Origin: Escherichia coli
Lineage (GTDB): Bacteria > Pseudomonadota > Gammaproteobacteria > Enterobacterales > Enterobacteriaceae
Length of the DNA stretch: 64,000 bases
NCBI RefSeq assembly: GCF_036507355.1
Contig: NZ_AP027877.1
Direction: 5' to 3' (one strand)
Shown: one piece after another, positions 1,676 through 64,000 of the stretch
How the letters are laid out: the number at the start of each line of letters is the position of its first letter
Numbering within the stretch: position 1 is the stretch's first letter
The notes under the pieces: generated by a model
Told to the model about the DNA's origin: nothing
The model's input: only the letters and a program-made list of their open reading frames with translations
Databases searched by the model: none
Translations under genes and position numbers: made by a program

Positions 1676-2926
1676 ATGGATATAATGAGAAGTGTTGTGG
1701 GGATGGTGGTGTTACTGGCAATAGCATTTCTGTTGTCGGTAAATAAAAAGAGCATCAGTTTGCGCACGGTTGGAGCCGCACTGCTGCTGCAAATCGCTAT
1801 TGGTGGCATCATGCTCTATTTTCCGCCGGGAAAATGGGCAGTAGAACAGGCGGCATTAGGCGTTCATAAAGTGATGTCTTACAGTGATGCCGGTAGCGCC
1901 TTCATTTTTGGTTCGCTGGTTGGGCCGAAAATGGATGTCCTCTTTGACGGTGCGGGTTTTATCTTCGCCTTTCGCGTACTTCCGGCGATTATCTTCGTCA
2001 CTGCGCTCATTAGTCTGCTGTACTACATTGGCGTGATGGGGCTGCTGATTCGCATCCTTGGCAGCATTTTCCAGAAAGCCCTCAACATCAGCAAAATCGA
2101 ATCTTTTGTCGCAGTCACCACTATTTTCCTCGGGCAAAATGAGATCCCGGCGATCGTTAAACCGTTTATCGATCGCATGAATCGAAACGAGTTGTTTACC
2201 GCAATTTGTAGCGGGATGGCGTCCATTGCTGGTTCGATGATGATTGGTTATGCCGGAATGGGCGTACCAATTGACTACCTGTTAGCGGCATCGCTGATGG
2301 CGATCCCCGGCGGTATTTTGTTTGCACGAATTCTTAGTCCAGCAACCGAGCTTTCGCAGGTCACGTTTGAAAATCTGTCGTTCAGCGAAACGCCGCCAAA
2401 AAGCTTTATCGAAGCAGCGGCGAGCGGTGCGATGACCGGGCTGAAAATCGCCGCCGGTGTGGCGACGGTGGTCATGGCGTTTGTCGCAATTATTGCGCTG
2501 ATTAATGGCATTATTGGCGGAATTGGCGGCTGGTTTGGTTTTGCCAATGCCTCTCTGGAAAGTATTTTTGGCTATGTGCTGGCACCGCTGGCGTGGATCA
2601 TGGGTGTGGACTGGAGTGATGCCAACCTTGCGGGTAGCCTGATTGGGCAGAAACTGGCGATTAACGAATTCGTCGCTTACCTGAGTTTCTCCCCATACCT
2701 GCAAACGGGCGGCACGCTGGAAGTGAAAACCATTGCGATTATCTCCTTTGCGCTTTGTGGTTTTGCTAACTTTGGTTCTATCGGTGTTGTCGTTGGGGCA
2801 TTTTCGGCTATTTCGCCAAAACGTGCTCCGGAAATCGCCCAGCTTGGTTTACGGGCGCTGGCAGCAGCAACGCTTTCCAACCTGATGAGCGCGACCATTG
2901 CCGGGTTCTTTATTGGTTTAGCTTGA
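1676..2926 (+). CDS. psuT: nucleoside (pseudouridine) transporter, NupC/CNT family
   Basis: 416-aa polytopic membrane ORF; paralogous to nupX in this window; operon position after psuK-psuG. Confidence 0.85.
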   Translation: MDIMRSVVGMVVLLAIAFLLSVNKKSISLRTVGAALLLQIAIGGIMLYFPPGKWAVEQAALGVHKVMSYSDAGSAFIFGSLVGPKMDVLFDGAGFIFAFRVLPAIIFVTALISLLYYIGVMGLLIRILGSIFQKALNISKIESFVAVTTIFLGQNEIPAIVKPFIDRMNRNELFTAICSGMASIAGSMMIGYAGMGVPIDYLLAASLMAIPGGILFARILSPATELSQVTFENLSFSETPPKSFIEAAASGAMTGLKIAAGVATVVMAFVAIIALINGIIGGIGGWFGFANASLESIFGYVLAPLAWIMGVDWSDANLAGSLIGQKLAINEFVAYLSFSPYLQTGGTLEVKTIAIISFALCGFANFGSIGVVVGAFSAISPKRAPEIAQLGLRALAAATLSNLMSATIAGFFIGLA

Positions 2927-2993
2927 GTTTCATTGCCGGATGTACTCGCTTATTAAGCGTTGCATCCGGCAATCGCGCTATTGCAAATAATTT

Positions 2994-3653
2994 TTACTGC
3001 ATCATCCCGGAGAATTTATTCTCCGGGTCCATCTCCAGCGCCAGTCCTGACAACTGCTTTCTGTTTTTAATGAGATATCCTTTCTTGCTTTTAATTAATA
3101 AACCGTCGTGAATGAATTGCGCGAGAACATATAAAAGATGTCGATAAGAAACGCCTAAATACTCTGCCGCTTGCGTATGCTTTTCGTGATAAAGATCACC
3201 TTCTTGTGAGAGTAATATAAATGCTGCCAGGCGATTCACTAACGGAAATGATTGATTCTGAGTTAAAGAAACAATATTACGATAATTTTTATGACTTAAG
3301 GTGACGCAAAGTTTTCGTAAAAATAGGGTGTCGTTTAATAACAGCGGACGGTAATGTTTCATAGGGAGCGCAAGGCACCAACACTCTTCAATCGCCTGTA
3401 CTGCACGTGGTTCATGGTCTTTATCGATTAACTCAATCTCGCCAATAAAACAGGGGGCGGCAAAGAAATCGATCAGCGACACGCAACCATTAGCTAGCGT
3501 GGCGTAAAGCCTGGCGCGGCCTCGCGTCAGGTAAAACAGCCAGGACGGCTGTTGCCCTTCCTGCACAATGTAGTCACGCGCTAAAAAATGAAACAGCCGC
3601 GTATCGGCTGAAACATCCGTTAAAAAGCAATCCTTAAACGCGGATTCACTCAT
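2994..3653 (-). CDS. yeiL: CRP/FNR-family transcriptional regulator
   Basis: ORF 2994..3692; start moved to internal Met ([10 protein letters not shown]...) giving 219 aa as recalled for YeiL; cNMP-binding-like N-terminus and C-terminal HTH. Confidence 0.8.
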
Positions 3654-3821
3654 CAATTGCTGCTTAAGATCATTATTGTGGATTTCTTTCACGATGTTTA
3701 TCCGCTATGAGATTTCTCATATTTAGCATACGTACGCTGTTGTTAAGATTCAATCATCGGCCCGGTCGAATTTTCTTTGCTGTAGAAAAAATAACGCAAC
3801 TGGAAACAGAGGAAATAAACA

Positions 3822-4763
3822 ATGGAAAAGAGAAAAATTATTCTGGATTGTGATCCGGGTCATGATGATGCTATTGCAATGATGATGGCAGCGAAACATC
3901 CGGCAATAGATTTATTAGGCATCACTATTGTAGCGGGTAATCAGACGCTTGATAAAACATTAATTAATGGCCTGAATGTTTGCCAGAAACTGGAGATTAA
4001 TGTTCCGGTTTATGCGGGGATGCCGCAACCCATTATGCGTCAACAAATCGTTGCCGATAATATTCACGGTGAAACCGGACTGGATGGCCCGGTATTCGAG
4101 CCGCTGACCCGCCAGGCAGAAAGTACCCACGCGGTGAAATACATCATTGATACCCTGATGGCAAGCGATGGCGATATCACTCTGGTGCCGGTTGGTCCGT
4201 TGTCAAATATCGCGGTGGCAATGCGTATGCAATCCGCAATCCTGCCCAAAATCCGTGAAATTGTGCTAATGGGCGGCGCTTACGGTACAGGCAACTTCAC
4301 GCCATCTGCCGAGTTCAACATCTTTGCTGACCCGGAAGCCGCACGCGTGGTGTTCACCTCCGGCGTTCCATTAGTGATGATGGGCCTCGATCTTACCAAC
4401 CAGACCGTTTGCACCCCGGACGTAATTGTTCGGATGGAAAGGGCAGGCGGCCCTGCCGGAGAGCTATTCAGCGACATCATGAACTTCACTCTCAAAACGC
4501 AGTTCGAAAACTACGGCCTGGCTGGCGGCCCGGTGCACGACGCCACCTGCATCGGTTATCTGATTAACCCTGATGGCATTAAAACCCAGGAGATGTACGT
4601 CGAAGTGGACGTCAACAGTGGCCCTTGCTATGGGCGTACCGTCTGCGACGAGCTGGGCGTTCTTGGCAAGCCCGCTAATACCAAAGTCGGCATCACTATT
4701 GATACCGACTGGTTCTGGGGCTTAGTCGAAGAGTGCGTGCGCGGCTACATCAAAACCCATTAA
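3822..4763 (+). CDS. rihB: pyrimidine-specific ribonucleoside hydrolase
   Basis: 313-aa ORF beginning [17 protein letters not shown] (nucleoside hydrolase DxDxxxDD aspartate motif). Confidence 0.9.
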
Positions 4764-4909
4764 GTGTTGATAACAAGCCGGGTCAGTATCGCAAAATGCA
4801 GGCCCGGCTATTTCTGAGGGGCAGAAAGCCGTCGCCCAATATGACATGAAGAGATAATAACTATGGATGTCATGAGAAGTGTTCTGGGAATGGTGGTATT
4901 GCTGACGAT

Positions 4910-4918
4910 TGCGTTTTT
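4910..4918. repeat. target-site duplication (left copy) TGCGTTTTT
   Basis: Identical 9-mer directly flanks both IS1 ends (4910..4918 and 5687..5695). Confidence 0.8.
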
Positions 4919-4973
4919 GGTGATGCTGCCAACTTACTGATTTAGTGTATGATGGTGTTTTTGAGGTGCTCCA

Positions 4974-5249
4974 GTGGCTTCTGTTTCTATCAGCTGTCCC
5001 TCCTGTTCAGCTACTGACGGGGTGGTGCGTAACGGCAAAAGCACCGCCGGACATCAGCGCTATCTCTGCTCTCACTGCCGTAAAACATGGCAACTGCAGT
5101 TCACTTACACCGCTTCTCAACCCGGTACGCACCAGAAAATCATTGATATGGCCATGAATGGCGTTGGATGCCGGGCAACAGCCCGCATTATGGGCGTTGG
5201 CCTCAACACGATTTTACGTCACTTAAAAAACTCAGGCCGCAGTCGGTAA
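4974..5249 (+). CDS. insA: IS1 InsA (transposition inhibitor / N-terminal part of InsAB' transposase)
   Basis: 91-aa [26 protein letters not shown]..., recognised IS1 InsA zinc-finger/HTH protein; GTG start. Confidence 0.9.
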
Positions 5250-5671
5250 CCTCGCGCATACAGCCGGGCAGTGACGTCATCGTCTGCGCGGAAATGGACG
5301 AACAGTGGGGCTATGTCGGGGCTAAATCGCGCCAGCGCTGGCTGTTTTACGCGTATGACAGGCTCCGGAAGACGGTTGTTGCGCACGTATTCGGTGAACG
5401 CACGATGGCGACGCTGGGGCGTCTTATGAGCCTGCTGTCACCCTTTGACGTGGTGATATGGATGACGGATGGCTGGCCGCTGTATGAATCCCGCCTGAAG
5501 GGAAAGCTGCACGTAATCAGCAAGCGATATACGCAGCGAATTGAGCGGCATAACCTGAATCTGAGGCAGCACCTGGCACGGCTGGGACGGAAGTCGCTGT
5601 CGTTCTCAAAATCGGTGGAGCTGCATGACAAAGTCATCGGGCATTATCTGAACATAAAACACTATCAATAA
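5168..5671 (+). CDS. insB: IS1 InsB reading frame (transposase catalytic part, expressed by -1 frameshift from insA)
   Basis: 167-aa ORF in -1 frame overlapping the insA 3' end, typical IS1 organisation. Confidence 0.85.
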
Positions 5672-5686
5672 GTTGGAGTCATTACC

Positions 5687-5695
5687 TGCGTTTTT
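5687..5695. repeat. target-site duplication (right copy) TGCGTTTTT
   Basis: See left copy. Confidence 0.8.
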
Positions 5696-6945
5696 ACTGT
5701 CAGTAAACAAGAAGAAGATCAGCCTGCGTACCGTTGGCGCGGCGTTAGTGTTACAGGTTGTGATTGGCGGGATTATGCTTTGGTTACCGCCAGGGCGTTG
5801 GGTCGCTGAAAAAGTCGCTTTTGGCGTGCATAAAGTGATGGCGTACAGCGATGCAGGTAGCGCATTTATCTTCGGTTCGCTGGTCGGGCCGAAAATGGAC
5901 ACGCTGTTTGATGGCGCAGGATTTATCTTTGGTTTCAGGGTGTTACCGGCAATTATCTTCGTCACCGCGCTGGTGAGTATTCTCTATTACATCGGTGTGA
6001 TGGGGATCTTAATTCGCATTCTCGGCGGTATATTCCAGAAAGCATTAAATATCAGCAAGATCGAGTCATTCGTCGCGGTCACTACCATTTTCCTCGGGCA
6101 AAACGAAATTCCGGCGATCGTCAAACCCTTTATCGATCGTCTGAATCGCAATGAATTATTTACAGCGATTTGTAGTGGCATGGCCTCGATTGCTGGTTCG
6201 ACAATGATTGGTTACGCCGCACTGGGCGTGCCTGTGGAATATTTGCTGGCGGCATCGTTAATGGCGATCCCAGGCGGGATCTTGTTTGCCCGCCTGCTAA
6301 GCCCGGCTATGGAATCTTCGCAGGTTTCTTTTAATAACCTCTCTTTCACCGAAACACCGCCAAAAAGCATTATTGAAGCTGCCGCGACAGAGGCAATGAC
6401 CGGGCTGAAAATCGCCGCAGGTGTGGCGACAGTAGTGATGGCATTTGTCGCCATCATTGCGTTAATTAACGGTATTATCGGCGGCGTTGGCGGCTGGTTT
6501 GGTTTTGAACATGCCTCGCTGGAATCCATTTTAGGTTACCTGCTGGCCCCACTGGCGTGGGTGATGGGTGTTGACTGGAGTGATGCGAATCTTGCCGGGA
6601 GTTTGATTGGTCAGAAACTGGCAATAAATGAATTTGTCGCTTATCTCAATTTCTCACCCTATCTGCAAACGGCTGACAAGCTGGATGCTAAAACCGTGGC
6701 GATTATTTCCTTCGCGTTGTGCGGTTTCGCTAACTTTGGTTCTATCGGGGTGGTGGTGGGGGCGTTTTCTGCGGTTGCGCCACACCGTGCGCCGGAAATC
6801 GCCCAACTTGGTTTACGCGCGCTGGCGGCGGCGACACTTTCTAATCTGATGAGTGCCACCATTGCCGGGTTCTTTATTGGTTTAGCGTAGTGTGCGATTT
6901 ATGAGCCGGATAATATGCGGTCAAGCGTCGAATCCGGCAACATTG

Positions 6946-10115: not shown

Positions 10116-10997
10116 ATGCACATCACCCTCCGGCAGTTGGAAGTTTTTGCAGAAGTATTGAAAAGTGGATCAACCACCCAGGCGTCGGTGATGCTGGCGT
10201 TGTCGCAATCAGCAGTGAGCGCAGCCTTGACCGACCTGGAAGGGCAACTTGGCGTGCAACTGTTTGATCGCGTGGGGAAAAGACTGGTTGTTAATGAACA
10301 CGGGCGGCTGCTCTATCCGCGTGCGTTGGCATTGCTTGAACAGGCGGTTGAAATCGAACAACTGTTTCGCGAAGACAACGGCGCGATTCGTATCTATGCC
10401 AGTAGTACCATCGGTAACTACATTCTGCCTGCAGTTATCGCCCGTTATCGCCATGATTATCCGCAGTTGCCGATTGAACTTAGCGTTGGGAACAGCCAGG
10501 ACGTGATGCAAGCGGTGCTGGATTTCCGCGTTGATATTGGCTTTATTGAAGGACCGTGCCACAGCACTGAAATCATTTCTGAACCGTGGCTGGAAGACGA
10601 GCTGGTGGTTTTCGCCGCGCCGACTTCGCCGTTGGCCCGTGGTCCGGTCACCTTAGAACAGCTGGCCGCTGCGCCGTGGATCCTGCGTGAACGCGGCTCC
10701 GGCACGCGGGAGATTGTCGATTATCTGTTGCTGTCACATTTACCGAAGTTTGAGATGGCGATGGAATTAGGTAACTCCGAGGCAATCAAACATGCGGTGC
10801 GTCATGGGTTGGGAATTAGTTGCCTGTCGCGACGGGTGATTGAAGACCAATTGCAGGCAGGCACATTAAGTGAAGTTGCGGTCCCTCTGCCGCGCCTGAT
10901 GCGTACGTTGTGGCGTATACATCATCGGCAAAAACACCTTTCCAACGCGCTACGGCGCTTTCTGGACTATTGCGATCCCGCGAATGTACCGTGTTAA
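10116..10997 (+). CDS. yeiE: LysR-type transcriptional regulator
   Basis: 293-aa ORF with N-terminal LysR HTH ([24 protein letters not shown]...). Confidence 0.85.
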
Positions 10998-25700: not shown

Positions 25701-25743
25701 GTGATCTTCCTTAATGCTATGAGTAATTAAGGCGAACGCTAAT

Positions 25744-25869
25744 ATACTCGTCATACTTCAAGTTGCATGTGCTGCGTCTGCGTTCGCTCACCCCAGTCAC
25801 TTACTTATGTAAGCTCCTGGGGACTCACTCACTTGTCGCCTTCCTGCAACTCGAATTATTTAGAGTATA
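25744..25869. repeat. ERIC / IRU intergenic repeat element (~126 bp)
   Basis: Contains the ERIC core in reverse orientation (CGCTCACCCCAGTCACTTACTTATGTAAGCTCCTGGGGA) flanked by TATACTCG...GAGTATA terminal inverted repeats. Confidence 0.8.
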
Positions 25870-54869: not shown

Positions 54870-56870
54870 TCATCCTTGTTGCTGAAGCATGGGGAATAAT
54901 TGTTCGCAAAGCAAAACACCGTTATTCATTGCTTCTACCCGTGCCCCGCTTTCTGTATTACGAAATTGTCCCAACACATGTGCCAGCCGATAAAAACCCA
55001 CCGCGGTGAGGTCATTCGCCAGCAATTCTGCCTGACTAATAGCGCTCTGTTCCTGATAGCGCCAGCCGTTATGGAGCAGCTGAATAAGTAACGCCTGGCA
55101 GCGTATCAGCAACTGATGAGCAGTAGACTGCACAGGCAAAACGCTGGCAGAAGGTAGCGGTGCCACAGGCGTAGTTTCTGCGTCCAGCGCCCAGGCACGA
55201 GTCTTTGTCATCATTACCTGTGGTTCCAGTGTCAATTGCCCATCAACAAAACTGACAAAGCCAGAAACCAGACACACGGGGTCGTCTGTTTGTTGCAAAA
55301 GCGCCGCCATGCGTTCAACGGCATAAGGCGCGCTGGCTGAGGCTGGCAGTGATAACGTCAGCAGATTATCTTCACCTTCGCCGCTGATTACCTGCGCATC
55401 CAGCGTCTGGCGGCTGCTATCCCAACCGAGCGAAATACACTCAGCGACCGGCAGAATAAATAAGTTATCGACCTGATTAAGAGGCCGTATGCAGGCGGGG
55501 GGACGCTGGCGTAAATATTCCCGCAAAGCCACAATGCCCGGCTGGCGTAACGGCGCGCTCAACATTCGCCAGGCATCAGGCGACAGCGGCACAACGCTGC
55601 TTAAGCGGTTGCGGGTAGCTAACAGCAGCTCGCCATCGGCACTGCGTTTTGCTGCTTGTGAAACAATTTGCCCACCCGCCAGTGCGCCAGCCTGAAAACT
55701 AAACAGCCGACGCGTAGCTGCCGGTGAGTTTTCCTGTTCACTTCGCGGCCAACTGCGCGAAAGGTGCAAAATACTGCCGGTGTCGGGATCGGTAAACCAG
55801 ATGCGTAAACCATAATGCTCAATATCCTGCCAGCAACGCATACCTAAAGACACCAGCCGCAGATGATCAAGCTTTGCTTCTCCGGCAATGCCAGAGCCAA
55901 CGACCGTGCGCCACGGCACAGGAGGAACTTCACCAACACTGTCGCGCCGGGCCATCTCTTGTGCGCAATTTAATCGACTGTTTAATGCCGCAAGCTGACG
56001 TAAGCATTCTCCGGCATGATAGTGGCTGGCGCGAGTGTGGAAGGCATCAACGCTTGCCCGTAGCTGTCGTAGTGATTCACTCACCCATCGCCAGTTGCAG
56101 CGTTCCGCTGCTTGCTGCGCGCGGCTGAAAGCGGCCTCGTAGTGAATAAGCGGCTGGCTGATGCCGCCAAACCATAATGCCTGGCTTAATTGCTGAACAT
56201 ATTGACGACACGTTTGGCCTTCTTCGCTGGCAAACGGGTCGTCAGATGATGTGACGTGTTCGCTGCGCATCTGCCAGATTAAATGAGTAAATTCCGCTTG
56301 CTGAGTTTTGGCCTCGACGAAGGCCTGCACAGCCAGTACGACATGTTCGCAAAGTGTGCCTTCAATACAATCACAACGGGCGAAACGAATGCTGCTACGG
56401 GAATAAAAACGCACATCGCTCATCGGTAAGCGGGCAGAGGGAATTTCGCCCGGCGTACAGAACAACTCAATGGTGATGCCTTTAGCGACCAGCGCCTGCG
56501 CGCGTTTGCGGGTGGCATCGGGCAGGGTAGCCAGTTCTTCCAGCCAGATTGCCGGATCCCACTCTTCTTCTTTTTCTGTGGGCTGGACGGTGGCACAAAG
56601 TCGTTGATAACTTAACACCAGCATCACGCGATGACGGCACATGCCGCTGGCCCCGCAGCTGCACTGAGCCTCTTTCAGTGCCTGGCCGTTCGCCAGCTGG
56701 GTACGGACACCGTCACTGAAGGTGGCGATTAAAGCGCCGTTCTCATGGCTGATCTCCGGGACGTTGCCATTTTCCAGTTCCTTAAGACTGCGCTTAACAA
56801 AACCGGCATTGCTTAACGCTGTCAGGGCCTGCGGTGTCAGTTCTAATAATTCCGGACGTAGTGAATTCAT
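54870..56870 (-). CDS. yehQ: SWIM zinc-finger domain protein, last gene of the yehLMPQ operon
   Basis: ORF 54870..56894; start placed at Met9 where ATG overlaps the yehP stop (ATGA); two CxC-Xn-CxH motifs (CSCGASGMCRH; CDCIEGTLCEH). Start uncertain. Confidence 0.75.
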   Translation of the reverse strand: MNSLRPELLELTPQALTALSNAGFVKRSLKELENGNVPEISHENGALIATFSDGVRTQLANGQALKEAQCSCGASGMCRHRVMLVLSYQRLCATVQPTEKEEEWDPAIWLEELATLPDATRKRAQALVAKGITIELFCTPGEIPSARLPMSDVRFYSRSSIRFARCDCIEGTLCEHVVLAVQAFVEAKTQQAEFTHLIWQMRSEHVTSSDDPFASEEGQTCRQYVQQLSQALWFGGISQPLIHYEAAFSRAQQAAERCNWRWVSESLRQLRASVDAFHTRASHYHAGECLRQLAALNSRLNCAQEMARRDSVGEVPPVPWRTVVGSGIAGEAKLDHLRLVSLGMRCWQDIEHYGLRIWFTDPDTGSILHLSRSWPRSEQENSPAATRRLFSFQAGALAGGQIVSQAAKRSADGELLLATRNRLSSVVPLSPDAWRMLSAPLRQPGIVALREYLRQRPPACIRPLNQVDNLFILPVAECISLGWDSSRQTLDAQVISGEGEDNLLTLSLPASASAPYAVERMAALLQQTDDPVCLVSGFVSFVDGQLTLEPQVMMTKTRAWALDAETTPVAPLPSASVLPVQSTAHQLLIRCQALLIQLLHNGWRYQEQSAISQAELLANDLTAVGFYRLAHVLGQFRNTESGARVEAMNNGVLLCEQLFPMLQQQG

Positions 56871-58003
56871 GACTGAAGATTCTCCGCAAGCCATGATGCC
56901 AGCTCGCCCGGTGTCATGGCGGCTATTTGTGCGCCGACATTTACCAGCGCCTGGGCCGTATCGTGGTCATAGCAAGGTGTTGCGGTGCTATCGAGCGCCG
57001 CCAGTCCCAGCACTTTGATGCCGCTCTGGACACACTTTTTCACCTGATGCGTCAGTAATGATGATGAACCCCCTTCGTAAAAATCGCTCACGAGGATAAT
57101 GACGCTTTTCGCTGGTTGTTCAATAAGTTGCCGACCATACTCCACGGCACTGGCGATATTGGTTCCGCCGCCTAATTGCACTTTCATTAATAACTCTACC
57201 GAATCGGCAACGTCTGCCGTGAGATCAACCACACTGGTGTCAAAAGCGACCAGATGGGTACGAATGCCGGGTAACTGCCATAAACAGGCCGCCATCACCG
57301 CAGAGTGGATCACCGAATCGACCATCGAGCCGCTTTGATCAACCAGTAAGACCAGTTGCCATTGTTCGCTTTGGCGTTTAATGCGGCTGTTAAAGCGGGG
57401 GGATTCGATATACAACTTGCCGTGTTGTGGGTGCCAGTGTTGCAGGTTGGCGCGCAGAGTACTTTTGAAATCAAAGTTTCGCGCCAGTGGAATAAATGAG
57501 CGGCGACGGCGATCGCGGACACCAGAAAAAGCCTGACGAACTTCCTTTGCCAGTCGAGCCATAATTTCTTCAACAACCTGGCGCACTATCCGGCGGGCGG
57601 CAGCCAGTACTTCGGGATTCATCAGATGTTTGGTGTGCAAAACGGCGCGTAGCAGGCTTTCAGACGGTTGCATACGTTCCAGCACGTCGAGATTCGTCAC
57701 CACATCTTCAATGCCATAGCGCAGTACGGCATCGCTTTCCAGCCGCTCAATCACCTGTTGCGGAAACAGCGTGTGAATACTGTTGATCCACTCAGGGGTG
57801 GTGAGATTTGAGCCACCTAATCCACCAGAGCGTTCACCACGCTGGAGCCGTTCAGGATCGCGCCCATACAGCCACTCCAGCGCGTGGTCTATCTGCCGGG
57901 CGTTGTCATCCAGCCCACAAAGCGTCGTTTCTGCCGCTTCGCCAAGAATTAATCGCCAGCGTTGTAGCTCACGGGTGGTCAGAAGATCGTTCAGTTCAGA
58001 CAT
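56867..58003 (-). CDS. yehP: von Willebrand factor A (VWA) domain protein
   Basis: ORF 56867..58231 trimmed to MSELNDLLTTRELQ... (378 aa); MIDAS motif DQSGSM in a hydrophobic beta-strand context (LVLLVDQSGSMVDS); start overlaps yehM 3' end by 8 nt. Confidence 0.8.
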   Translation of the reverse strand: MSELNDLLTTRELQRWRLILGEAAETTLCGLDDNARQIDHALEWLYGRDPERLQRGERSGGLGGSNLTTPEWINSIHTLFPQQVIERLESDAVLRYGIEDVVTNLDVLERMQPSESLLRAVLHTKHLMNPEVLAAARRIVRQVVEEIMARLAKEVRQAFSGVRDRRRRSFIPLARNFDFKSTLRANLQHWHPQHGKLYIESPRFNSRIKRQSEQWQLVLLVDQSGSMVDSVIHSAVMAACLWQLPGIRTHLVAFDTSVVDLTADVADSVELLMKVQLGGGTNIASAVEYGRQLIEQPAKSVIILVSDFYEGGSSSLLTHQVKKCVQSGIKVLGLAALDSTATPCYDHDTAQALVNVGAQIAAMTPGELASWLAENLQS

Positions 58004-60275
58004 GGAAAACTCCCCAGTTTTGCAGCGATGCCAGTGCCTGCTGTTCGAGTTGTTGATGATGTGCAATGGCTTGTGGTGGGCAATGCAACGGCATTTGCAG
58101 CGCCGAAACGGGAAGTTGCGCCAGTTGATAATGTTCAAGCACCTGATGCGCCAGCGTCCCGCGTTCTCGTGGTGGTAGCCAGGCCATCGCCGCGCGTAAA
58201 TCGGGCAGGGCATTGATAAAATCGGCATCACTTAGTTGATTTAAATGACTGCTGAAACCGGCGATAAATGCCGGCTGACAGGCCAGTTGATGGCGGGCCA
58301 GCGCCAGCAAACCGTGCAGCGCTTCGCTGGATTGTGCCGGGGATAACTGCGCCAGCATCGTCAGCGCCGCTTCGGCACTAGCGTTGGGATGTTCCAGACG
58401 CATCAGTGCGCCAAGAGCCGCGCCGCGATCCAGCGCCGGGGCATGATTCGCATGACTGCGGCGCTCCAGTAAGGCTACCGCCGCAGAAAGCGAAACGCCG
58501 GATAAATTAACGCCGCTATGTAGATCGCGCAGAATATGGCAAAGCGCTTGCCAGCTATGCAGGTGAGCGTGAAACTCCTTTTCATCCGGTCTGCCGTTAG
58601 ATTCACACAGCCACAGCGTGCGATCGATAGCCGCGCATAACGTCGTCTGTAATATCTGCGCGCCTTGCATACCGCTGATTTCATCCAGCCGCCATAAGGC
58701 ATATAGCACTTCCAGCGCCTGGCCCATTTCGGCAAATTGATTTTCCTGGGCTATTAATAATGTGAGTTGTTCCAGTAATTGTTGACTGAAGGACGCCAGA
58801 CCCGCTAACGCTGCCTGGCTAAGACATGTGGTGATACTGCCGATTCCACCCGCGTCCAGCATATCGGCTTCTAATTTATGGCGTGCGGCTTCCTGGAGTG
58901 TGGCACCAAAGCAGGCGGCCTCAATCAATGCCGCATGCTGGCTAAGCGGGCGGGTTAATTTCCAGCGTTCTTCACCATTGCCTGCAAGTGTCAGTGTACT
59001 TCCCTGCTGGCGTACAATCCCTGGGATCTCCAGTATTGCCAGCCGATGTAACACCTGACTTTGCGCTAGTCCATTGGGGTTAAAGCGATTTAAGGTAAGC
59101 TCCGCCGGAAGAGAGATTGTGGTACGTTCCAGTTCGCAGGTGACATCTTTTGGCAGAGGCGGTTGTGGCGTGGAGGGGGCAAGTTTACCGAATCCGTCAC
59201 CCGCTAATGTGTCTATCAACGTTAGCAGAATCGGATCGGTGTCGGGATGAATAACTCCGCGATAACTCCACGGCAACGGCGCATTCAGGGCTTCTTTAAT
59301 CAGCGAGCCTGCTATGGCATCCAGCCAGTCAGTGCGTAACGGTAGTTTATGTCCGCGCAACTGTGCCAGCGCCATCGCATGCAGATGAGCGGCAGCCATA
59401 TCCGCGGTCGAAGCAGGCAAGTGGTGTTGGCGCAAACGGGTAAGAACCGTTTTTAGCAGTTGTTCTCCCGCCTGCTGTAAGCCCCACTGCCAGCACCAGC
59501 TTTGCCAGACCGGGGCAGGCATTCCGGAAAGGTATCCTGCCAGCACATCAAGGCGCTTTTCACTGTAGGGTGTGAGATAACAACCTGTAACGGCATCTGC
59601 CAGCGACGGCAATTCTGGCGTGTTAATTTCCTGCGGACATTCGCGCCACATTTTTGCCAGTGCCGGAGCGTGCCAGCCACCGCAGACAACTAACACGTCG
59701 CCATTATTTTGCTGCATCGCCCATCCAATCCAGCGGGCCATAAAGGCTTCGCGCTGACGATTGAGTGCATCTCCGGGGGAGTCGCCCCGCAGTTGGGCAA
59801 AATAGTGCGCCAGCGCAGAGGGTAATGCAGTTTGCTGGCTTTCATCTTCGAACAAGTGATCCCACAGGGTATCGCTGTTATCCATGCGGGTGGCACGCAG
59901 CAGTAAGGCCTGGCTTTCATCTTGCGTATCAGGCGAATCGTCCTCTTCTTCACTCTGTGCCCAGCAAGGCAAATCGATGAAGTAAGTTTGTGCCTGAATA
60001 CGACGTGCGGCTTGTAGCGCCTGCCACTCCGGCGAAAATTCAGCAAATGGCGTCCAGGCACCGCGCCCGGGGGCCGTACCGTCCTGATACTGGCAATAAC
60101 TGTAAATAGCTACCGGAAGCTGGTGGGCTAAAAACAGTTCGTCTACCAGGTCATTAAAATCAGCCGGGCCTTCAATCAACACGTATCGTGGCCGCTGGCT
60201 TTCGATTAACGATTTCACCAGCCGGGCGCAGGCCGGGCTATGATGCCGGATGCCGACAATTAACGGCTCGCTCAT
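57996..60275 (-). CDS. yehM: large protein of unknown function (DUF5682-like)
   Basis: ORF 57996..60449 trimmed to MSEPLIVGIRHHSPACARLV... (759 aa); no catalytic motif recognised by eye. Confidence 0.8.
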   Translation of the reverse strand: MSEPLIVGIRHHSPACARLVKSLIESQRPRYVLIEGPADFNDLVDELFLAHQLPVAIYSYCQYQDGTAPGRGAWTPFAEFSPEWQALQAARRIQAQTYFIDLPCWAQSEEEDDSPDTQDESQALLLRATRMDNSDTLWDHLFEDESQQTALPSALAHYFAQLRGDSPGDALNRQREAFMARWIGWAMQQNNGDVLVVCGGWHAPALAKMWRECPQEINTPELPSLADAVTGCYLTPYSEKRLDVLAGYLSGMPAPVWQSWCWQWGLQQAGEQLLKTVLTRLRQHHLPASTADMAAAHLHAMALAQLRGHKLPLRTDWLDAIAGSLIKEALNAPLPWSYRGVIHPDTDPILLTLIDTLAGDGFGKLAPSTPQPPLPKDVTCELERTTISLPAELTLNRFNPNGLAQSQVLHRLAILEIPGIVRQQGSTLTLAGNGEERWKLTRPLSQHAALIEAACFGATLQEAARHKLEADMLDAGGIGSITTCLSQAALAGLASFSQQLLEQLTLLIAQENQFAEMGQALEVLYALWRLDEISGMQGAQILQTTLCAAIDRTLWLCESNGRPDEKEFHAHLHSWQALCHILRDLHSGVNLSGVSLSAAVALLERRSHANHAPALDRGAALGALMRLEHPNASAEAALTMLAQLSPAQSSEALHGLLALARHQLACQPAFIAGFSSHLNQLSDADFINALPDLRAAMAWLPPRERGTLAHQVLEHYQLAQLPVSALQMPLHCPPQAIAHHQQLEQQALASLQNWGVFHV

Positions 60276-60285
60276 GCATCTTTCC

Positions 60286-61374
60286 TCACGGCAGGCGGTG
60301 ACGGGCTTGATAATAAGCCTGCCAGTGAGCTTCTTTATGTGTGGCGACACGCTGTTCGAAGTAACGGCGCAGACGAGCGCGATCTTCTTCGTTATCTTTG
60401 ACGATGGTTCCGGCAATACAGTCCACCAGGTCGGCAGGCTCCCCCGCACGATTCGCTAAAAACCAGGCGCGGACGCCCACAGCGTGAGCCACATTCACGG
60501 CTTCAGCGGTGGACATAATTGCCGTCAGTGTATCCATTGACGTTTTCTTTTCGCCGTTGGCACGCAGATCGCGGAAGGTGCGGACCAGTAACTCCAGTAC
60601 CGCGTCAGGCACTTTATGCGGAATACCGCTATGGGCCAGCAAACGCGCCGAAGCACTGGCGACAAGCTCCAGCTCCTGGGCGAAATCCATAATCGGAAAG
60701 ACAGTTTCAAAATCGAAGCGACGCTTTAGCGCAGCACTCATTTCATTGACGCCGCGATCGCGGGTATTGTCAGTGGCAATAATATTAAAGCCTTCTCGCG
60801 CATAGAGCTGACTGGCTTCACCAGTGAGTTCCGGCACCGTCATCACCCTGTCAGAAAGCATACCTAACAGACAGTCTTGCACTTCCAGCGGTGTACGCGT
60901 TATCTCTTCAAAACGGACGATTTTGCCGTCGCGCATTCCCTGGTAAAGCGGGGCTGGGACCAGCGCTTCCGTTGATGGACCATGATTGATAAGCAGGGCG
61001 TAGTTCCAGCCGTACTTGATTTGATCTTCGGTAGTAGATGCGCCGTCCTGGATGGTTAACCCGGCATCGCCGCTAATAGCGGTTGCCAGTAATTCAGACA
61101 GGAGAGATTTTGCGGTGCCAGATTCCCCCACCAACATCAAACCGCGTCCGGTGGCAAGAGTGACTAACATACGTTCGACAGCGGAGGGACTAATCACCAC
61201 TTTACGGCTAATATTTTGCGCGCTATCGCCAAGGATAAAAGCACGGGCCGCAGGCAAACTTAACTGCCAACCGGGCGGGCAAGGTGCGTTATCATTTTGT
61301 TTTAATTTTGCCAGTTCATCGGCGTATAACACAGCAGCAGGCGGACGCTGCAGATGATTATTCTGCGGTGACAT
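60286..61374 (-). CDS. yehL: MoxR-like AAA+ ATPase
   Basis: ORF 60286..61440 trimmed to MSPQNNHLQRPPAAVLYADE... (362 aa); Walker A GESGTAKS at nt 61105..61128; AAA+ core. Confidence 0.85.
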   Translation of the reverse strand: MSPQNNHLQRPPAAVLYADELAKLKQNDNAPCPPGWQLSLPAARAFILGDSAQNISRKVVISPSAVERMLVTLATGRGLMLVGESGTAKSLLSELLATAISGDAGLTIQDGASTTEDQIKYGWNYALLINHGPSTEALVPAPLYQGMRDGKIVRFEEITRTPLEVQDCLLGMLSDRVMTVPELTGEASQLYAREGFNIIATDNTRDRGVNEMSAALKRRFDFETVFPIMDFAQELELVASASARLLAHSGIPHKVPDAVLELLVRTFRDLRANGEKKTSMDTLTAIMSTAEAVNVAHAVGVRAWFLANRAGEPADLVDCIAGTIVKDNEEDRARLRRYFEQRVATHKEAHWQAYYQARHRLP

Positions 61375-61484: not shown

Positions 61485-61568
61485 TAAAAAAACCTGCTGG
61501 TGAGGCAGGTTCTTTTATTTACTATTTTCAGGCCTAACACCACAGCCTGTGCAACATCGTGTTCCAAC
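61485..61568 (-). ncRNA. orzO: candidate OrzO-like antitoxin sRNA of the zor/orz type I TA locus
   Basis: Minus-strand sigma70 promoter (-35 TTGCAA 61603..61598, 17-nt spacer, -10 TATAAT 61580..61575) precedes a region whose transcript would be complementary to the zorO 5' UTR (direct DNA repeat 61549..61573 vs 61715..61739), ending at a minus-strand hairpin plus U-tract (stem 61492..61510, A-run 61485..61491 on plus strand). Boundaries approximate. Confidence 0.45.
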
Positions 61569-61574
61569 GAACGA

Positions 61575-61625
61575 ATTATAACCACGGCTGGACCCCGTTG
61601 CAATTAAGATAATGAGATTTATAAT
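61575..61625. promoter_or_regulatory. back-to-back divergent promoters for zorO (+) and orzO (-) sharing one palindromic -35 hexamer
   Basis: Plus strand: TTGCAA (61598..61603), 16-nt spacer, TATAAT (61620..61625). Minus strand: the same self-complementary TTGCAA, 17-nt spacer, TATAAT (61580..61575). Predicted zorO TSS gives a ~174-nt 5' UTR. Confidence 0.45.
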
Positions 61626-61806
61626 CCAGACCGTTGGGACGTTGCGCCGGATCGGACCAATTTTAAGTCCTGGCTACCGGACGGGTGGTGCTGCAGGTGG
61701 TGCCCTGATCCGGAGTGCAACATCGTGGTCCAACATACGTAAACCAGTATCGACAGGCAGTGTAAGGGTAAGGTGCTGGTGTTGCGCTCCTTAATAAGGA
61801 GAGCGG

Positions 61807-61896
61807 ATGGACACGCTGACACAAAAGTTAACCGTGCTCATTGCTGTACTGGAGCTATTAGTAGCTCTGTTACGGTTGATTGATTTGTTGAAGTAA
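61807..61896 (+). CDS. zorO: type I toxin ZorO (29-aa hydrophobic membrane peptide)
   Basis: Read from sequence: AAGGAG RBS then ATG...MDTLTQKLTVLIAVLELLVALLRLIDLLK; matches recalled ZorO of enterohaemorrhagic E. coli; below track cutoff. Confidence 0.8.
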   Translation: MDTLTQKLTVLIAVLELLVALLRLIDLLK

Positions 61897-61919
61897 CGGG
61901 CAAATTGAAACGCATCTAA

Positions 61920-61942
61920 GGGGGAAAACCGCTTCCCCCTTT
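61920..61942 (+). terminator. rho-independent terminator of zorO
   Basis: GGGGGAA-aaccgc-TTCCCCC hairpin followed by TTT. Confidence 0.5.
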
Positions 61943-61950
61943 AATAAAGC

Positions 61951-62005
61951 TATACTCGTCATATTTCAAGTTGCATGTGCTGCGACTTGAATTATCTAGA
62001 GTATA
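61951..62005. repeat. short ERIC-like element (terminal arms only)
   Basis: TATACTCGTCATATTTCAAGTTGCATGTGCTGCG...GAATTATCTAGAGTATA matches the outer arms of the full ERIC at 25744..25869 but lacks the central core. Confidence 0.5.
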
Positions 62006-62323
62006 TTATTCTATTTCTTGGTTGAATATATTCTGTAGTTCACGATTAAAAATTGCTATTACAGTTTCAGGTGATTCACCTCGTAATTTCCGCTCATCAA
62101 TACACTCATCTCTTATATAAATCAACGCATCATTTATTAGCGGGTCAGCATCTTCTCGATCACGTTGATGAAATGTTGGATGTAGCCGGAATCGCTCCAG
62201 TCGATAGACGGAACCTGTAAATAATTCAGAGCATTTATGGATCTCAAGTCTGAAGGAAAACGGATCTTCAGGTACAGGGACCTCATAATCGTAAATAGCA
62301 ACTAGCTCTTTTTGCACGATCAT
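62006..62323 (-). CDS. yehK: small protein of unknown function
   Basis: 105-aa ORF MIVQKELVAIYDYEVPVPEDPFSF...; sits between yehI and the zorO insertion. Confidence 0.8.
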   Translation of the reverse strand: MIVQKELVAIYDYEVPVPEDPFSFRLEIHKCSELFTGSVYRLERFRLHPTFHQRDREDADPLINDALIYIRDECIDERKLRGESPETVIAIFNRELQNIFNQEIE

Positions 62324-62383
62324 CGCTTTCCCCGCTGGTAAGTCGTGTAGATAACGGGCAGTCGCATCACTGCCCGCTGTGTT

Positions 62384-64000
62384 TTAATGGAAAATGACGT
62401 CAGGTGCGCTTAACGCCTCACTCAAATCAAACACATCAAGTTCGGCAAAAGTGACGGATTTATTGTCACGGTACACTCGAAGAGAACGGAAGCTCATTAA
62501 CGCTTTGCTATCAACATTGTAGTGGTTAAAACCGGGTGAAAACTTAAGGACCAGCCGGTACTCGCCCAGGTCATAGACAAATGCGTCCTCATAGCCTGAC
62601 TCCCAGCCTTTGTATCGCATTCCCATAAGTTGCCCAACGGTAGCGGATTTACCTTCCCAGCGAGTCAGGCTGTTACTGGTTGACTCGTCAGGTGTGAGCA
62701 GCACCGTGCGGCGCGACAACTGGCGAAAAGGCGGCATAATTTCGTAATCGGCAAAAAGCTGTGCAAATTCACTGCGCATTTCTGCTGTCATTTCTAACGG
62801 GTGGGCAATGCCAATCAGAGCGTCCGCAGGCAGGTCAATTGGCTCATCTTGCGCATTGCAGAACTCCCCCTCTGCGGCCACACGAAAGGCGTTGAGTAAA
62901 CAACGCGGTTCATTTGCCGGATAAACCCCCCATATTAATCGCTGGGTAACCAGACGGGTAAAGGGATGATTAACAAACAGAGAATGAAAATCTGCCAGCG
63001 ACCAGCGTCGGGTGGTACGTAGGGCAGCTTCAAGACGCGGGAGCAGGTTTTTGCTCACCTGAGTAGCATCTTTTTTTAGCCCTTTTAGTCGGGCCAGTGC
63101 CTCGGGCGCTTTCAGTTGATCGTCATCGGCGCGCAACCGGGGAACGCTTTTCTGGTGAACGTTTTGCTGATCAAAGATAACCGGGTTGAGGTTTTCATCG
63201 AAGCGAACGGTAAACTGCCGGGGACCAAAATCAAAACTCAACGCCTGCGGATCATCAAGGCCCAGGGTTGGGACTAATCTGTCCGCTAGCTCTTCCTGGC
63301 TTAGCCCGCGATTTTCTGCGACCACCTGAAGAAATTCCGCCGCGTTATCACGTAAGGGGCGGGATTTAGCCCGTTGCGATATATGATGCAGCTGTATCAG
63401 CGCCATATCATTATTCATCAGGGTAAGGATGTTCAGGCCGCTGACAGCACGGGCAGATTTGCCTTCTTGTGGCCAGGCGAGGATCTGTGTCGTCAGATCC
63501 CGTGCCGTGCTTTCGTCACCAAAGAGACTTAACGCCAGAAATGCCCAGTTGTCTTTTGCGGGGGCACCAGCTTGTTGCCACGCAGTGAAGAGATCCCAGG
63601 CAAAAGCTGCCAGCGTTTGTGGCTGGCAGAACGTTTTCAGTTGTTCCAGCCCGCTATAAAAACGTCCCCCCTGGGTAAAGCGCAGCATTTCGCCGATAAT
63701 TTCCAGAGCGTCATCGGTAACAGTTTGATTATTAGTGATAAGGCGCGGCCTGGACCACATTTGCGGATGCCAGAAATCAGGGGCTTTTGGAATGCGTGCC
63801 GGGTAAATCTCTATTGGACTCTGTTTAAGTAATTGTTCCAGGGCAGGCCATAGATCTGTACGCTGCCAACGATTGGCTACAGTTTGTAGCAATTCGCCAT
63901 GCCCATGTTCGTAAAGTAAACGCAGGGCAAGTAATGCATCTTCGCTTTTATCGCTAGATTTGGTGAAGACAAGAGGGATAAGTGCAGTAGCCGTATGTTC
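62384..64000 (-). CDS. yehI: DUF4132-family large protein (partial; N-terminal part lies beyond the window end)
   Basis: Track ORF 62384..63892 (502 aa) is an internal-Met artefact; the frame remains open to the window end. Confidence 0.8.
   Translation of the reverse strand, partial: EHTATALIPLVFTKSSDKSEDALLALRLLYEHGHGELLQTVANRWQRTDLWPALEQLLKQSPIEIYPARIPKAPDFWHPQMWSRPRLITNNQTVTDDALEIIGEMLRFTQGGRFYSGLEQLKTFCQPQTLAAFAWDLFTAWQQAGAPAKDNWAFLALSLFGDESTARDLTTQILAWPQEGKSARAVSGLNILTLMNNDMALIQLHHISQRAKSRPLRDNAAEFLQVVAENRGLSQEELADRLVPTLGLDDPQALSFDFGPRQFTVRFDENLNPVIFDQQNVHQKSVPRLRADDDQLKAPEALARLKGLKKDATQVSKNLLPRLEAALRTTRRWSLADFHSLFVNHPFTRLVTQRLIWGVYPANEPRCLLNAFRVAAEGEFCNAQDEPIDLPADALIGIAHPLEMTAEMRSEFAQLFADYEIMPPFRQLSRRTVLLTPDESTSNSLTRWEGKSATVGQLMGMRYKGWESGYEDAFVYDLGEYRLVLKFSPGFNHYNVDSKALMSFRSLRVYRDNKSVTFAELDVFDLSEALSAPDVIFH

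Follow-up and report, generated by a model that had tools for sequence, protein, structure and literature searches.

As a family, the MoxR AAA+ ATPases have generally been linked to the maturation of complexes (PMC3893208), and YehL of Escherichia coli is the name-giving member of one of its branches, the YehL subfamily of Snider and Houry as cited in PMC3893208. In the described MoxR-VWA pairs, namely RavA-ViaA, CoxD-CoxE, NorQ-NorD and CbbQ-CbbO, an AAA_5-type ATPase gene and a gene for a MIDAS-bearing VWA protein lie in one string, as do yehL and yehP of the yehLMPQ gene group. E. coli K-12 has, to our knowledge, just two MoxR systems, of which YehLMPQ is one. A second described element touches the same genes: zor, the toxin gene of the type I toxin-antitoxin locus zor/orz, was reported in 2010 to lie between yehI/K and yehL (PMC2887945), and zor/orz has not been found outside Escherichia and Shigella (PMC3919570). 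Here we analyse a stretch of 64,000 nucleotides (nt) of E. coli DNA (contig NZ_AP027877.1), referred to throughout as the window, which at its end carries yehI, a gene of the DUF4132 family that runs off the edge, and downstream of it yehK and yehLMPQ. An earlier note on this DNA had placed yehK and yehI upstream of yehLMPQ on the same strand, and its coordinates all hold. It is probable, in our judgement, that yehI and its upstream paralogue molR represent the DUF4132 subunit of an ancient five-component cassette built around a YehL-YehP remodeller, and that in E. coli the two halves of this cassette are separate transcription units.

The five-gene cassette across bacteria

We used YehM (DUF5682), the most specific of the proteins, as the marker for related loci and obtained 80 of them from a collection with one genome per species; for each E. 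coli protein, a profile was built by iteration and run against all open reading frames (ORFs) of these loci. In five loci the sequence breaks off too near yehL for a judgement, which leaves 75 that can be assessed, and in 69 of these DUF4132 is adjacent and co-oriented, in one to four copies that mostly carry a WGR domain. In the usual arrangement, found in 64 of the 75, the AAA+ gene is directly preceded on its own strand by between one and four DUF4132 genes; five more loci, all Burkholderia, have the DUF4132 gene immediately after the SWIM gene. In genera other than Escherichia, the YehL profile match mostly begins less than 100 nt past the DUF4132 stop codon. The loci in which DUF4132 shares a strand with the AAA+, DUF5682, VWA and SWIM genes come from distant taxa (gamma-, beta- and deltaproteobacteria and actinobacteria) and also from plasmids.

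Altogether, DUF4132 occupies four different positions in the gene string. The order is AAA - DUF4132 - DUF5682 - VWA - SWIM-like on a metagenome contig (L089), AAA - DUF5682 - DUF4132 - VWA - SWIM on a conjugative Sinorhizobium plasmid (L091), where the DUF4132 and VWA genes overlap by 4 bp, and DUF4132 - AAA - DUF5682 - VWA on a Streptomyces plasmid (L092), again with 4-bp overlaps; two further loci (L094 and L096) have DUF4132 upstream. The gene stays in one string while its place within the string changes, which speaks strongly for a functional link. The five families travel as one tightly packed string in at least four bacterial classes and on plasmids, and the cassette consists of a DUF4132 protein, with or without WGR, a MoxR-class AAA+ ATPase (YehL), a DUF5682 protein (YehM), a VWA protein with a MIDAS site (YehP) and a SWIM protein (YehQ). 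The link is one-way: operons of the yehLMPQ type almost always bring DUF4132, and DUF4132 also exists alone. The earlier note had named independent assortment of yehIK and yehLMPQ as the finding that would speak against a common unit, and the answer differs with the gene and the direction, for yehK assorts independently, yehLMPQ does not assort independently of DUF4132, and DUF4132 does assort independently of yehLMPQ.

Within the Enterobacterales the distribution is patchy. YehI and YehM occur together in Escherichia, the Klebsiella oxytoca group, Intestinirhabdus and Serratia fonticola, and YehM homologues additionally in Erwinia and Edaphovirga, so that the genus sets of the two proteins overlap; Salmonella, Citrobacter and Enterobacter are missing among the 120 matches listed for YehI and among those listed for YehM. 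Within E. coli, the last 10 kb of the window has a match in 5425 of 5426 complete genomes at 90-99% identity, and both halves lie side by side in other Escherichia species as well. Both halves being core genes in E. coli, their co-occurrence within the species is uninformative. As a separate observation, two loci (L059 and L052, Betaproteobacteria bacterium MS502) have a Bro-N gene between yehL and yehM and a PT-HINT gene downstream; they hold no yehP, yehQ or DUF4132 gene and look like degraded or disrupted copies of the cassette.

The DUF4132 proteins YehI and MolR

The part of yehI in the window has no internal stop and, with its 538 codons, covers the C-terminal 44% of YehI, which in related genomes is 1210 amino acids long; a further 672 codons fall beyond the edge, in agreement with the earlier note's description of the gene as open there. 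The fragment scores 162.9 bits against the Pfam model of DUF4132 (cut-off 27), which makes it a member of the family, and full-length YehI scores 160.1 bits. The nucleotide identity of the window copy to annotated yehI is 98%. An AlphaFold2 model of the C-terminal half, with a predicted local distance difference test score (pLDDT) of 94.3 and a predicted template modelling score of 0.84, shows helical repeats followed by beta/alpha modules. The suspicion that the system extends past the window proved right as well: after the rest of yehI follows, in related genomes, a second DUF4132 gene, molR, which lies between the window edge and metG and includes a WGR domain. Escherichia and Klebsiella hold both paralogues, MolR with WGR and YehI without it, and the two share 38% identity over their whole length. 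Most DUF4132 proteins linked to the cassette elsewhere have an N-terminal WGR domain (71 ORFs). Between Escherichia clades, the ratio of nonsynonymous to synonymous substitution rates (dN/dS) is 0.10-0.14 for yehI and 0.03-0.05 for yehL, which indicates purifying selection on both.

The DUF4132 family is far larger than the cassette. Clustered at 50% identity, the relatives of the C-terminal half of YehI number 5697, and genomic context was inspected for ten of them. Three of the ten adjoin an AAA_5 - DUF5682 - VWA string, and two (L082 and L090) clearly stand by themselves, flanked on each side by 9-10 kb of unrelated genes; the others come from short contigs or belong to tandem DUF4132 arrays with unrelated genes behind them. 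Two metagenome contigs (L087 and L088) carry tandem arrays of at least four DUF4132 or WGR-DUF4132 genes with no AAA+ or VWA gene directly after them, which suggests that paralogues can expand independently of the cassette. Full-length matches to YehK (phrog_36295, window positions 62009-62323) and to YehI (phrog_20839, 62387-64000) were noticed in PHROGs; we judge that these families are probably chromosomal DNA in prophage calls. Among 50,697 phage records, which were searched for the cassette marker YehM and not for YehK or YehI, a single weak, partial match to YehM was found.

Several of these features would suit a nucleoside triphosphate-dependent conflict system directed against phages or plasmids, in which WGR-DUF4132 proteins sense foreign nucleic acid and the AAA+ and VWA proteins transduce the signal. 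Tandem DUF4132 paralogues range from one to at least four copies and differ in number between close relatives, the taxonomy is patchy, the cassette is also carried by plasmids, some of them conjugative, there is a WGR domain, and in Escherichia a type I toxin-antitoxin module adjoins the genes. Against this explanation, none of seven proteins has a match in PADLOC-DB 2.0 at E <= 0.01, and the domain searches recognised nothing typical of a nuclease, protease, NADase or pore-forming effector. The E. coli copy, moreover, occupies a fixed chromosomal site as part of the core gene set, not a variable island, and the cassette is essentially absent from phage genomes. We regard a role in conflict as doubtful.

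The AAA+ and VWA proteins and their partners

All four yehLMPQ genes of the window are intact. YehL has the Walker A motif GESGTAKS and scores 119 bits against AAA_5, and its Walker-B-like motif VRFEEITR, in which the sequence FEE has Glu-Glu for Asp-Glu, is invariant in 82 of 82 family members. YehP scores 243 bits against VWA_CoxE, and its MIDAS motif is invariant in 79 of 79. Such invariance of the MIDAS and ATPase motifs points to a machine under selection. The sequence hallmarks of a MoxR-VWA remodeller, an AAA+ protein with Walker A and an adjacent VWA protein with DxSxS, are both present, and the nearest solved relatives of YehL are the AAA modules of Midasin.

One explanation for such a pair would be a classical MoxR-VWA chaperone that serves cofactor insertion or maturation of an enzyme complex, as do CoxD/CoxE, NorQ/NorD and RavA/ViaA. 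The membership of YehP in the CoxE-like VWA family and the general tie of MoxR proteins to complex maturation (PMC3893208) are in keeping with this, and the old name of MolR, 'molybdate metabolism regulator', hints at a molybdoenzyme as client. However, the 80 loci show no candidate client enzyme that is conserved beside the cassette, their flanking genes varying from genus to genus, and the WGR and SWIM domains point to recognition of nucleic acid or protein and not to metal centres. A chaperone of this classical kind seems improbable to us.

yehK as an addition in Escherichia

In E. coli, yehK is nearly universal (5234 of 5426 genomes). A GGGGA stretch resembling a Shine-Dalgarno site was read ahead of its ATG, and its dN/dS between Escherichia clades, 0.16-0.20, is similar to that of yehI. 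Among the 74 database homologues of YehK, every one with a named organism belongs to Escherichia or Shigella, and a profile search of the ORFs recovered yehK in 0 of 77 cassette loci outside Escherichia; it is not a conserved member of the cassette. The protein has no match to a Pfam, NCBIfam or PADLOC family, and its AlphaFold2 model, of low confidence (pLDDT 68), gave no convincing fold match in a structure search. The idea that YehK is a fragment or relative of the DUF4132 C-terminus was ruled out by a profile-profile probability of 0.1%. Judged by its sequence, yehK is a real, selected gene specific to Escherichia that stands outside the conserved machine. Its restriction to this genus and its absence from the 77 other loci mark it as a lineage-specific addition, gained along with, or close to, the insertions of ERIC and zor/orz described below, by which the ancestral junction of DUF4132 and yehL was opened. 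Of the functional unit proposed in the earlier note, yehIK plus yehLMPQ, the part that concerns yehI stands, given the 69 of 75 loci, and the part that concerns yehK falls.

The locus in E. coli and its spacer

Six yeh genes share the minus strand at the end of the window (Table 1). Only in Escherichia is the string split between the DUF4132 gene and yehL, by yehK, a shortened enterobacterial repetitive intergenic consensus element (mini-ERIC) and zor/orz. The small gap of 60 nt between yehI and yehK contains a hairpin with an 8-bp stem that has no good U-tract after it on the yeh strand and could be a stabiliser of the mRNA or a weak attenuator.

Table 1. Features at the end of the window, in window coordinates.
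Feature	Coordinates	Strand	Basis or remark
yehI, C-terminal 538 codons and stop	62384..64000	-	open frame, runs off the window edge
DUF4132 domain (PF13569) of YehI	62603..63154	-	Pfam match, fragment residues 283-466
G+C-rich hairpin, 8 bp, in the 60-nt yehI-yehK gap	62355..62376		terminator-like scan and sequence
yehK, 105 amino acids	62006..62323	-	ORF; RefSeq E. coli name 'protein YehK'
mini-ERIC, 55 bp: 34-nt left and 21-nt right ERIC termini, no centre	61951..62005		match to full ERIC
G+C-rich hairpin, terminator of zor toxin mRNA	61919..61943		sequence and fold, region z-score -4.95
zor toxin ORF, 29 amino acids, MDTLTQKLTVLIAVLELLVALLRLIDLLK	61807..61896	+	convergent with yehK
zor promoter-like site	61598-61625	+	TTGCAA-16/17-TATAAT, 10/12 matches
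orz promoter-like site	61603-61575	-	TTGCAA-16/17-TATAAT, 10/12 matches
Orz antitoxin small RNA	61486..61561	-	Rfam RF02083, 99.9 bits against gathering score 60
yehL, MoxR-class AAA+ ATPase (AAA_5)	60286..61374	-	Pfam and RefSeq annotation
yehM, DUF5682	57996..60275	-	Pfam, 328 bits
yehP, VWA (CoxE-like), MIDAS motif DQSGS	56867..58003	-	Pfam and motif
yehQ, SWIM zinc-finger protein	54870..56870	-	Pfam and CxC...CxH motifs

The spacer between yehK and yehL measures 631 bp. ERIC elements are imperfect palindromes of about 126 bp with conserved termini and a conserved centre. The element in the spacer begins directly past the yehK stop codon, folds as a hairpin and differs from a full copy by 0-1 mismatch in its termini, the central ~70 nt being missing; to judge from this comparison, it is a centre-deleted derivative of the ERIC type. 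A full-length canonical ERIC of 126 bp, holding both primer sites of the ERIC polymerase chain reaction, occurs elsewhere in the window at 25743-25868.

Beyond the mini-ERIC follows a zor-orz module of type I, recognisable by the RF02083 match and by the divergent ORF for a hydrophobic toxin of 29 amino acids. The hairpin that ends the toxin mRNA has no U-tract on the yeh strand. The two promoter-like sites stand back to back in a consensus scan (61575-61625), and the 5' part of the Orz small RNA has 13 nt of complementarity, as read from the sequence, to the zor 5' untranslated region. Orz ends in an intrinsic terminator, a stem of AACCUGC and GCAGGUU followed by U7, whose U-run finishes at about 61484; this terminator is on the strand of the yeh genes, and the yehL ATG follows 110 nt downstream of it. 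A 321-nt query spanning the zor ORF (61640-61960) found matches in 3397 of the 5426 complete genomes (median copy number two), which agrees with the published count of 25% one-copy and 42% two-copy genomes in E. coli (PMC11264685). In strain MG1655, by alignment, about 325 bp are missing, which take in the toxin ORF and the greater part of both the mini-ERIC and the toxin 5' untranslated region; the orz gene, its promoter and its terminator are kept at 100% identity, and the small RNA itself (L086, about 10400-10480) is 100% identical to that of the window. The MG1655 copy has been named OrzP/OrzPmg, is identical to OrzP of EDL933 and is expressed as a discrete small RNA, and about 30% of E. 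coli have been described as 'orz-only' (PMC11264685). The earlier note had read the spacer as zorO/orzO plus an ERIC-like element, and its 631 bp do hold a mini-ERIC, zor and Orz. Because the small RNA is identical to the MG1655 copy called OrzP/OrzPmg (PMC11264685), however, the pair may be better named zorP/orzP-like than zorO/orzO. Judged by their short gaps, all cassette loci outside Escherichia lack zor/orz.

Transcription and SOS control

Outside Escherichia, the spacing of the genes gives the cassette the appearance of one operon. In the window, yehI, yehK and yehLMPQ do not form a single operon by such signs, given the 631-bp gap, the convergent zor gene and the Orz terminator. A transcript from yehI and yehK would have to pass the mini-ERIC and the zor hairpin, cross zor in antisense and read through the Orz terminator before it reached yehL. 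The discrete Orz band in MG1655 (PMC11264685) indicates that this terminator works in vivo, and most transcripts from yehI and yehK should consequently stop 110 nt before yehL. Co-transcription of yehIK with yehLMPQ in E. coli is therefore unlikely on the present sequence. yehLMPQ may be transcribed from a weak promoter, or else by read-through that begins at the strong orz promoter, and the Orz terminator may accordingly either insulate yehLMPQ or, by read-through, drive it.

At the other end of the locus, beyond the window, the molR ATG is immediately preceded by a LexA box, CTGGATATAAATACAG (L001, 27838-27853). The predicted site, AACTGGATATAAATACAGGG, fits CTG-N10-CAG with an AT-rich spacer, as expected for the LexA regulon, and molR is among the genes with a known SOS box (PMC6590174). 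This box suggests that the DUF4132 array is probably SOS-induced in E. coli. A general SOS link for the cassette was ruled out, for a LexA-box scan of all loci was positive only in E. coli and Klebsiella grimontii.

Discussion

Our findings highlight that the DUF4132 proteins belong with the YehLMPQ proteins, and the association is plain from gene neighbourhoods. In the mechanism that we favour, YehL and YehP would form an ATP-driven remodeller of the MoxR-VWA or Midasin type, which by analogy with RavA-ViaA, CoxD-CoxE and Midasin would grip a partner through the MIDAS site. The DUF4132 proteins, of 1200-1450 amino acids, are probably HEAT-like solenoids that end in beta/alpha modules and mostly begin with a WGR domain; they may act as scaffold, sensor or client subunits, with WGR supplying the recognition of nucleic acid, and YehM and YehQ may be further subunits of the remodeller. 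In E. coli the halves would most likely be separate transcription units, with molR, yehI and yehK read from the promoter with the LexA box and yehLMPQ lying downstream of the Orz terminator, which would place the link at the level of protein and not at that of mRNA.

A number of observations weigh against this proposal, and we acknowledge them together. Six of the 75 assessable loci (L052, L059, L066, L067, L071 and L080) have no DUF4132 gene within 10 kb; a divergent DUF4132 gene hidden there was ruled out, the large neighbouring ORFs of the five examined (all but L052) being assigned by Pfam to unrelated families. Nor does DUF4132 always come with the other four genes, for free-standing and tandem DUF4132 genes are common, and their frequent occurrence without yehLMPQ implies that they can act independently. 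No solved structures were found for YehM, YehP or YehQ, and no literature was found that links these proteins by experiment. A consensus scan detected no promoter resembling the sigma-70 type between the Orz terminator and yehL. The restriction of the LexA box to Escherichia and Klebsiella means that the SOS link is not general, but a local feature. Finally, parts of the locus have been lost in individual lineages: molR is split in K-12 into yehF and the pseudogene yehH (L086, MG1655, 2475-6270), yehM has become a pseudogene through an internal stop in one O157:H7 strain (L093, PV15-279, 4001-6280), and a sublineage of sequence type 131 carries a resistance transposon in the DUF4132 region (PMC9334617). 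The broken copies and the transposon are signs that the E. coli copy is dispensable.

Some of these points would be accounted for if the two halves were historical neighbours, with molR, yehI and yehK of Escherichia forming an independent SOS unit and their adjacency to yehLMPQ being a relic of the ancestral operon. Such a history would be in accordance with the 631-bp spacer, which contains a convergent toxin gene and a functional intrinsic terminator, with a LexA box at molR and none near yehL, with the frequency of free-standing DUF4132 genes elsewhere, and with pseudogenes that hit the halves independently (molR in K-12, yehM in O157). Yet other Escherichia species, like 5425 of 5426 E. 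coli genomes, keep the halves adjacent, purifying selection acts on both yehI (dN/dS 0.10-0.14) and yehL (0.03-0.05), and elsewhere the cassette is strongly conserved as a unit. We think it quite unlikely that the adjacency is only such a relic, and we retain the five-component cassette with a split in Escherichia as the better account.

A more specific role can be put forward only with low expectation: the cassette might be a previously undescribed Midasin-like AAA+/MIDAS system of DNA-damage or conflict response, in which WGR-DUF4132 proteins would recognise damaged or foreign nucleic acid, and whose sensor half would in Escherichia be under LexA control and uncoupled from the motor half by the toxin-antitoxin insertion. 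We offer this as a speculation that we would not expect to hold in full.

As a feature of the genome, the yeh region is ordinary; it points to a widespread conserved cassette. Neither the genes nor the YehL subfamily, the zor/orz module or the orz-only state of K-12 is new, all being annotated or published already. There is almost no literature on these genes, and we found no publication that treats DUF4132 as part of the YehLMPQ system. What the present analysis adds is the delimitation of the cassette as five components and not four, with DUF4132 in and yehK out. Future studies of YehLMPQ should take in yehI and molR, with attention to the fact that K-12 carries a broken molR, and the SOS box at molR makes DNA damage a concrete condition under which to search for a phenotype.

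Comparison with described systems

Of the known systems, the zor/orz type I toxin-antitoxin locus of E. coli (Fozo 2010; Wen 2014; PMC11264685) is matched exactly by the element in the spacer, with its toxin of 29 amino acids, its divergent small RNA and its site between yehK and yehL. This copy is an insertion into the yeh string and stands outside the conserved cassette. A looser likeness exists to the WGR-domain proteins, which include PARP1-3 and bacterial MolR-like proteins. The cassette DUF4132 proteins usually begin with WGR, and the profile of a DUF4132-protein alignment matches both the WGR domain of PARP3 and the Bacteroides protein 2ra8; however, YehI itself has lost its WGR domain, and DUF4132 proteins are without the catalytic domain of PARP.

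The motor half can be compared with two further systems. Midasin (Rea1/Mdn1), the remodeller of eukaryotic ribosome assembly, is the best solved sequence relative of YehL, and its logic is alike in that AAA_5 modules are combined with a MIDAS domain and helical-repeat scaffolds. Midasin, however, is one chain of 4700-4900 amino acids with several AAA modules, whereas the parts of the cassette are separate proteins, and the similarity between YehL and Midasin is confined to the AAA module (E ~1e-9 to 1e-10). With the MoxR-VWA pairs the cassette shares the juxtaposed ATPase and VWA genes, to which it adds three large conserved partners, the DUF5682, SWIM and WGR-DUF4132 proteins; it differs from these pairs further in standing without a nearby client enzyme and in the Walker-B-like FEE of all 82 family members.

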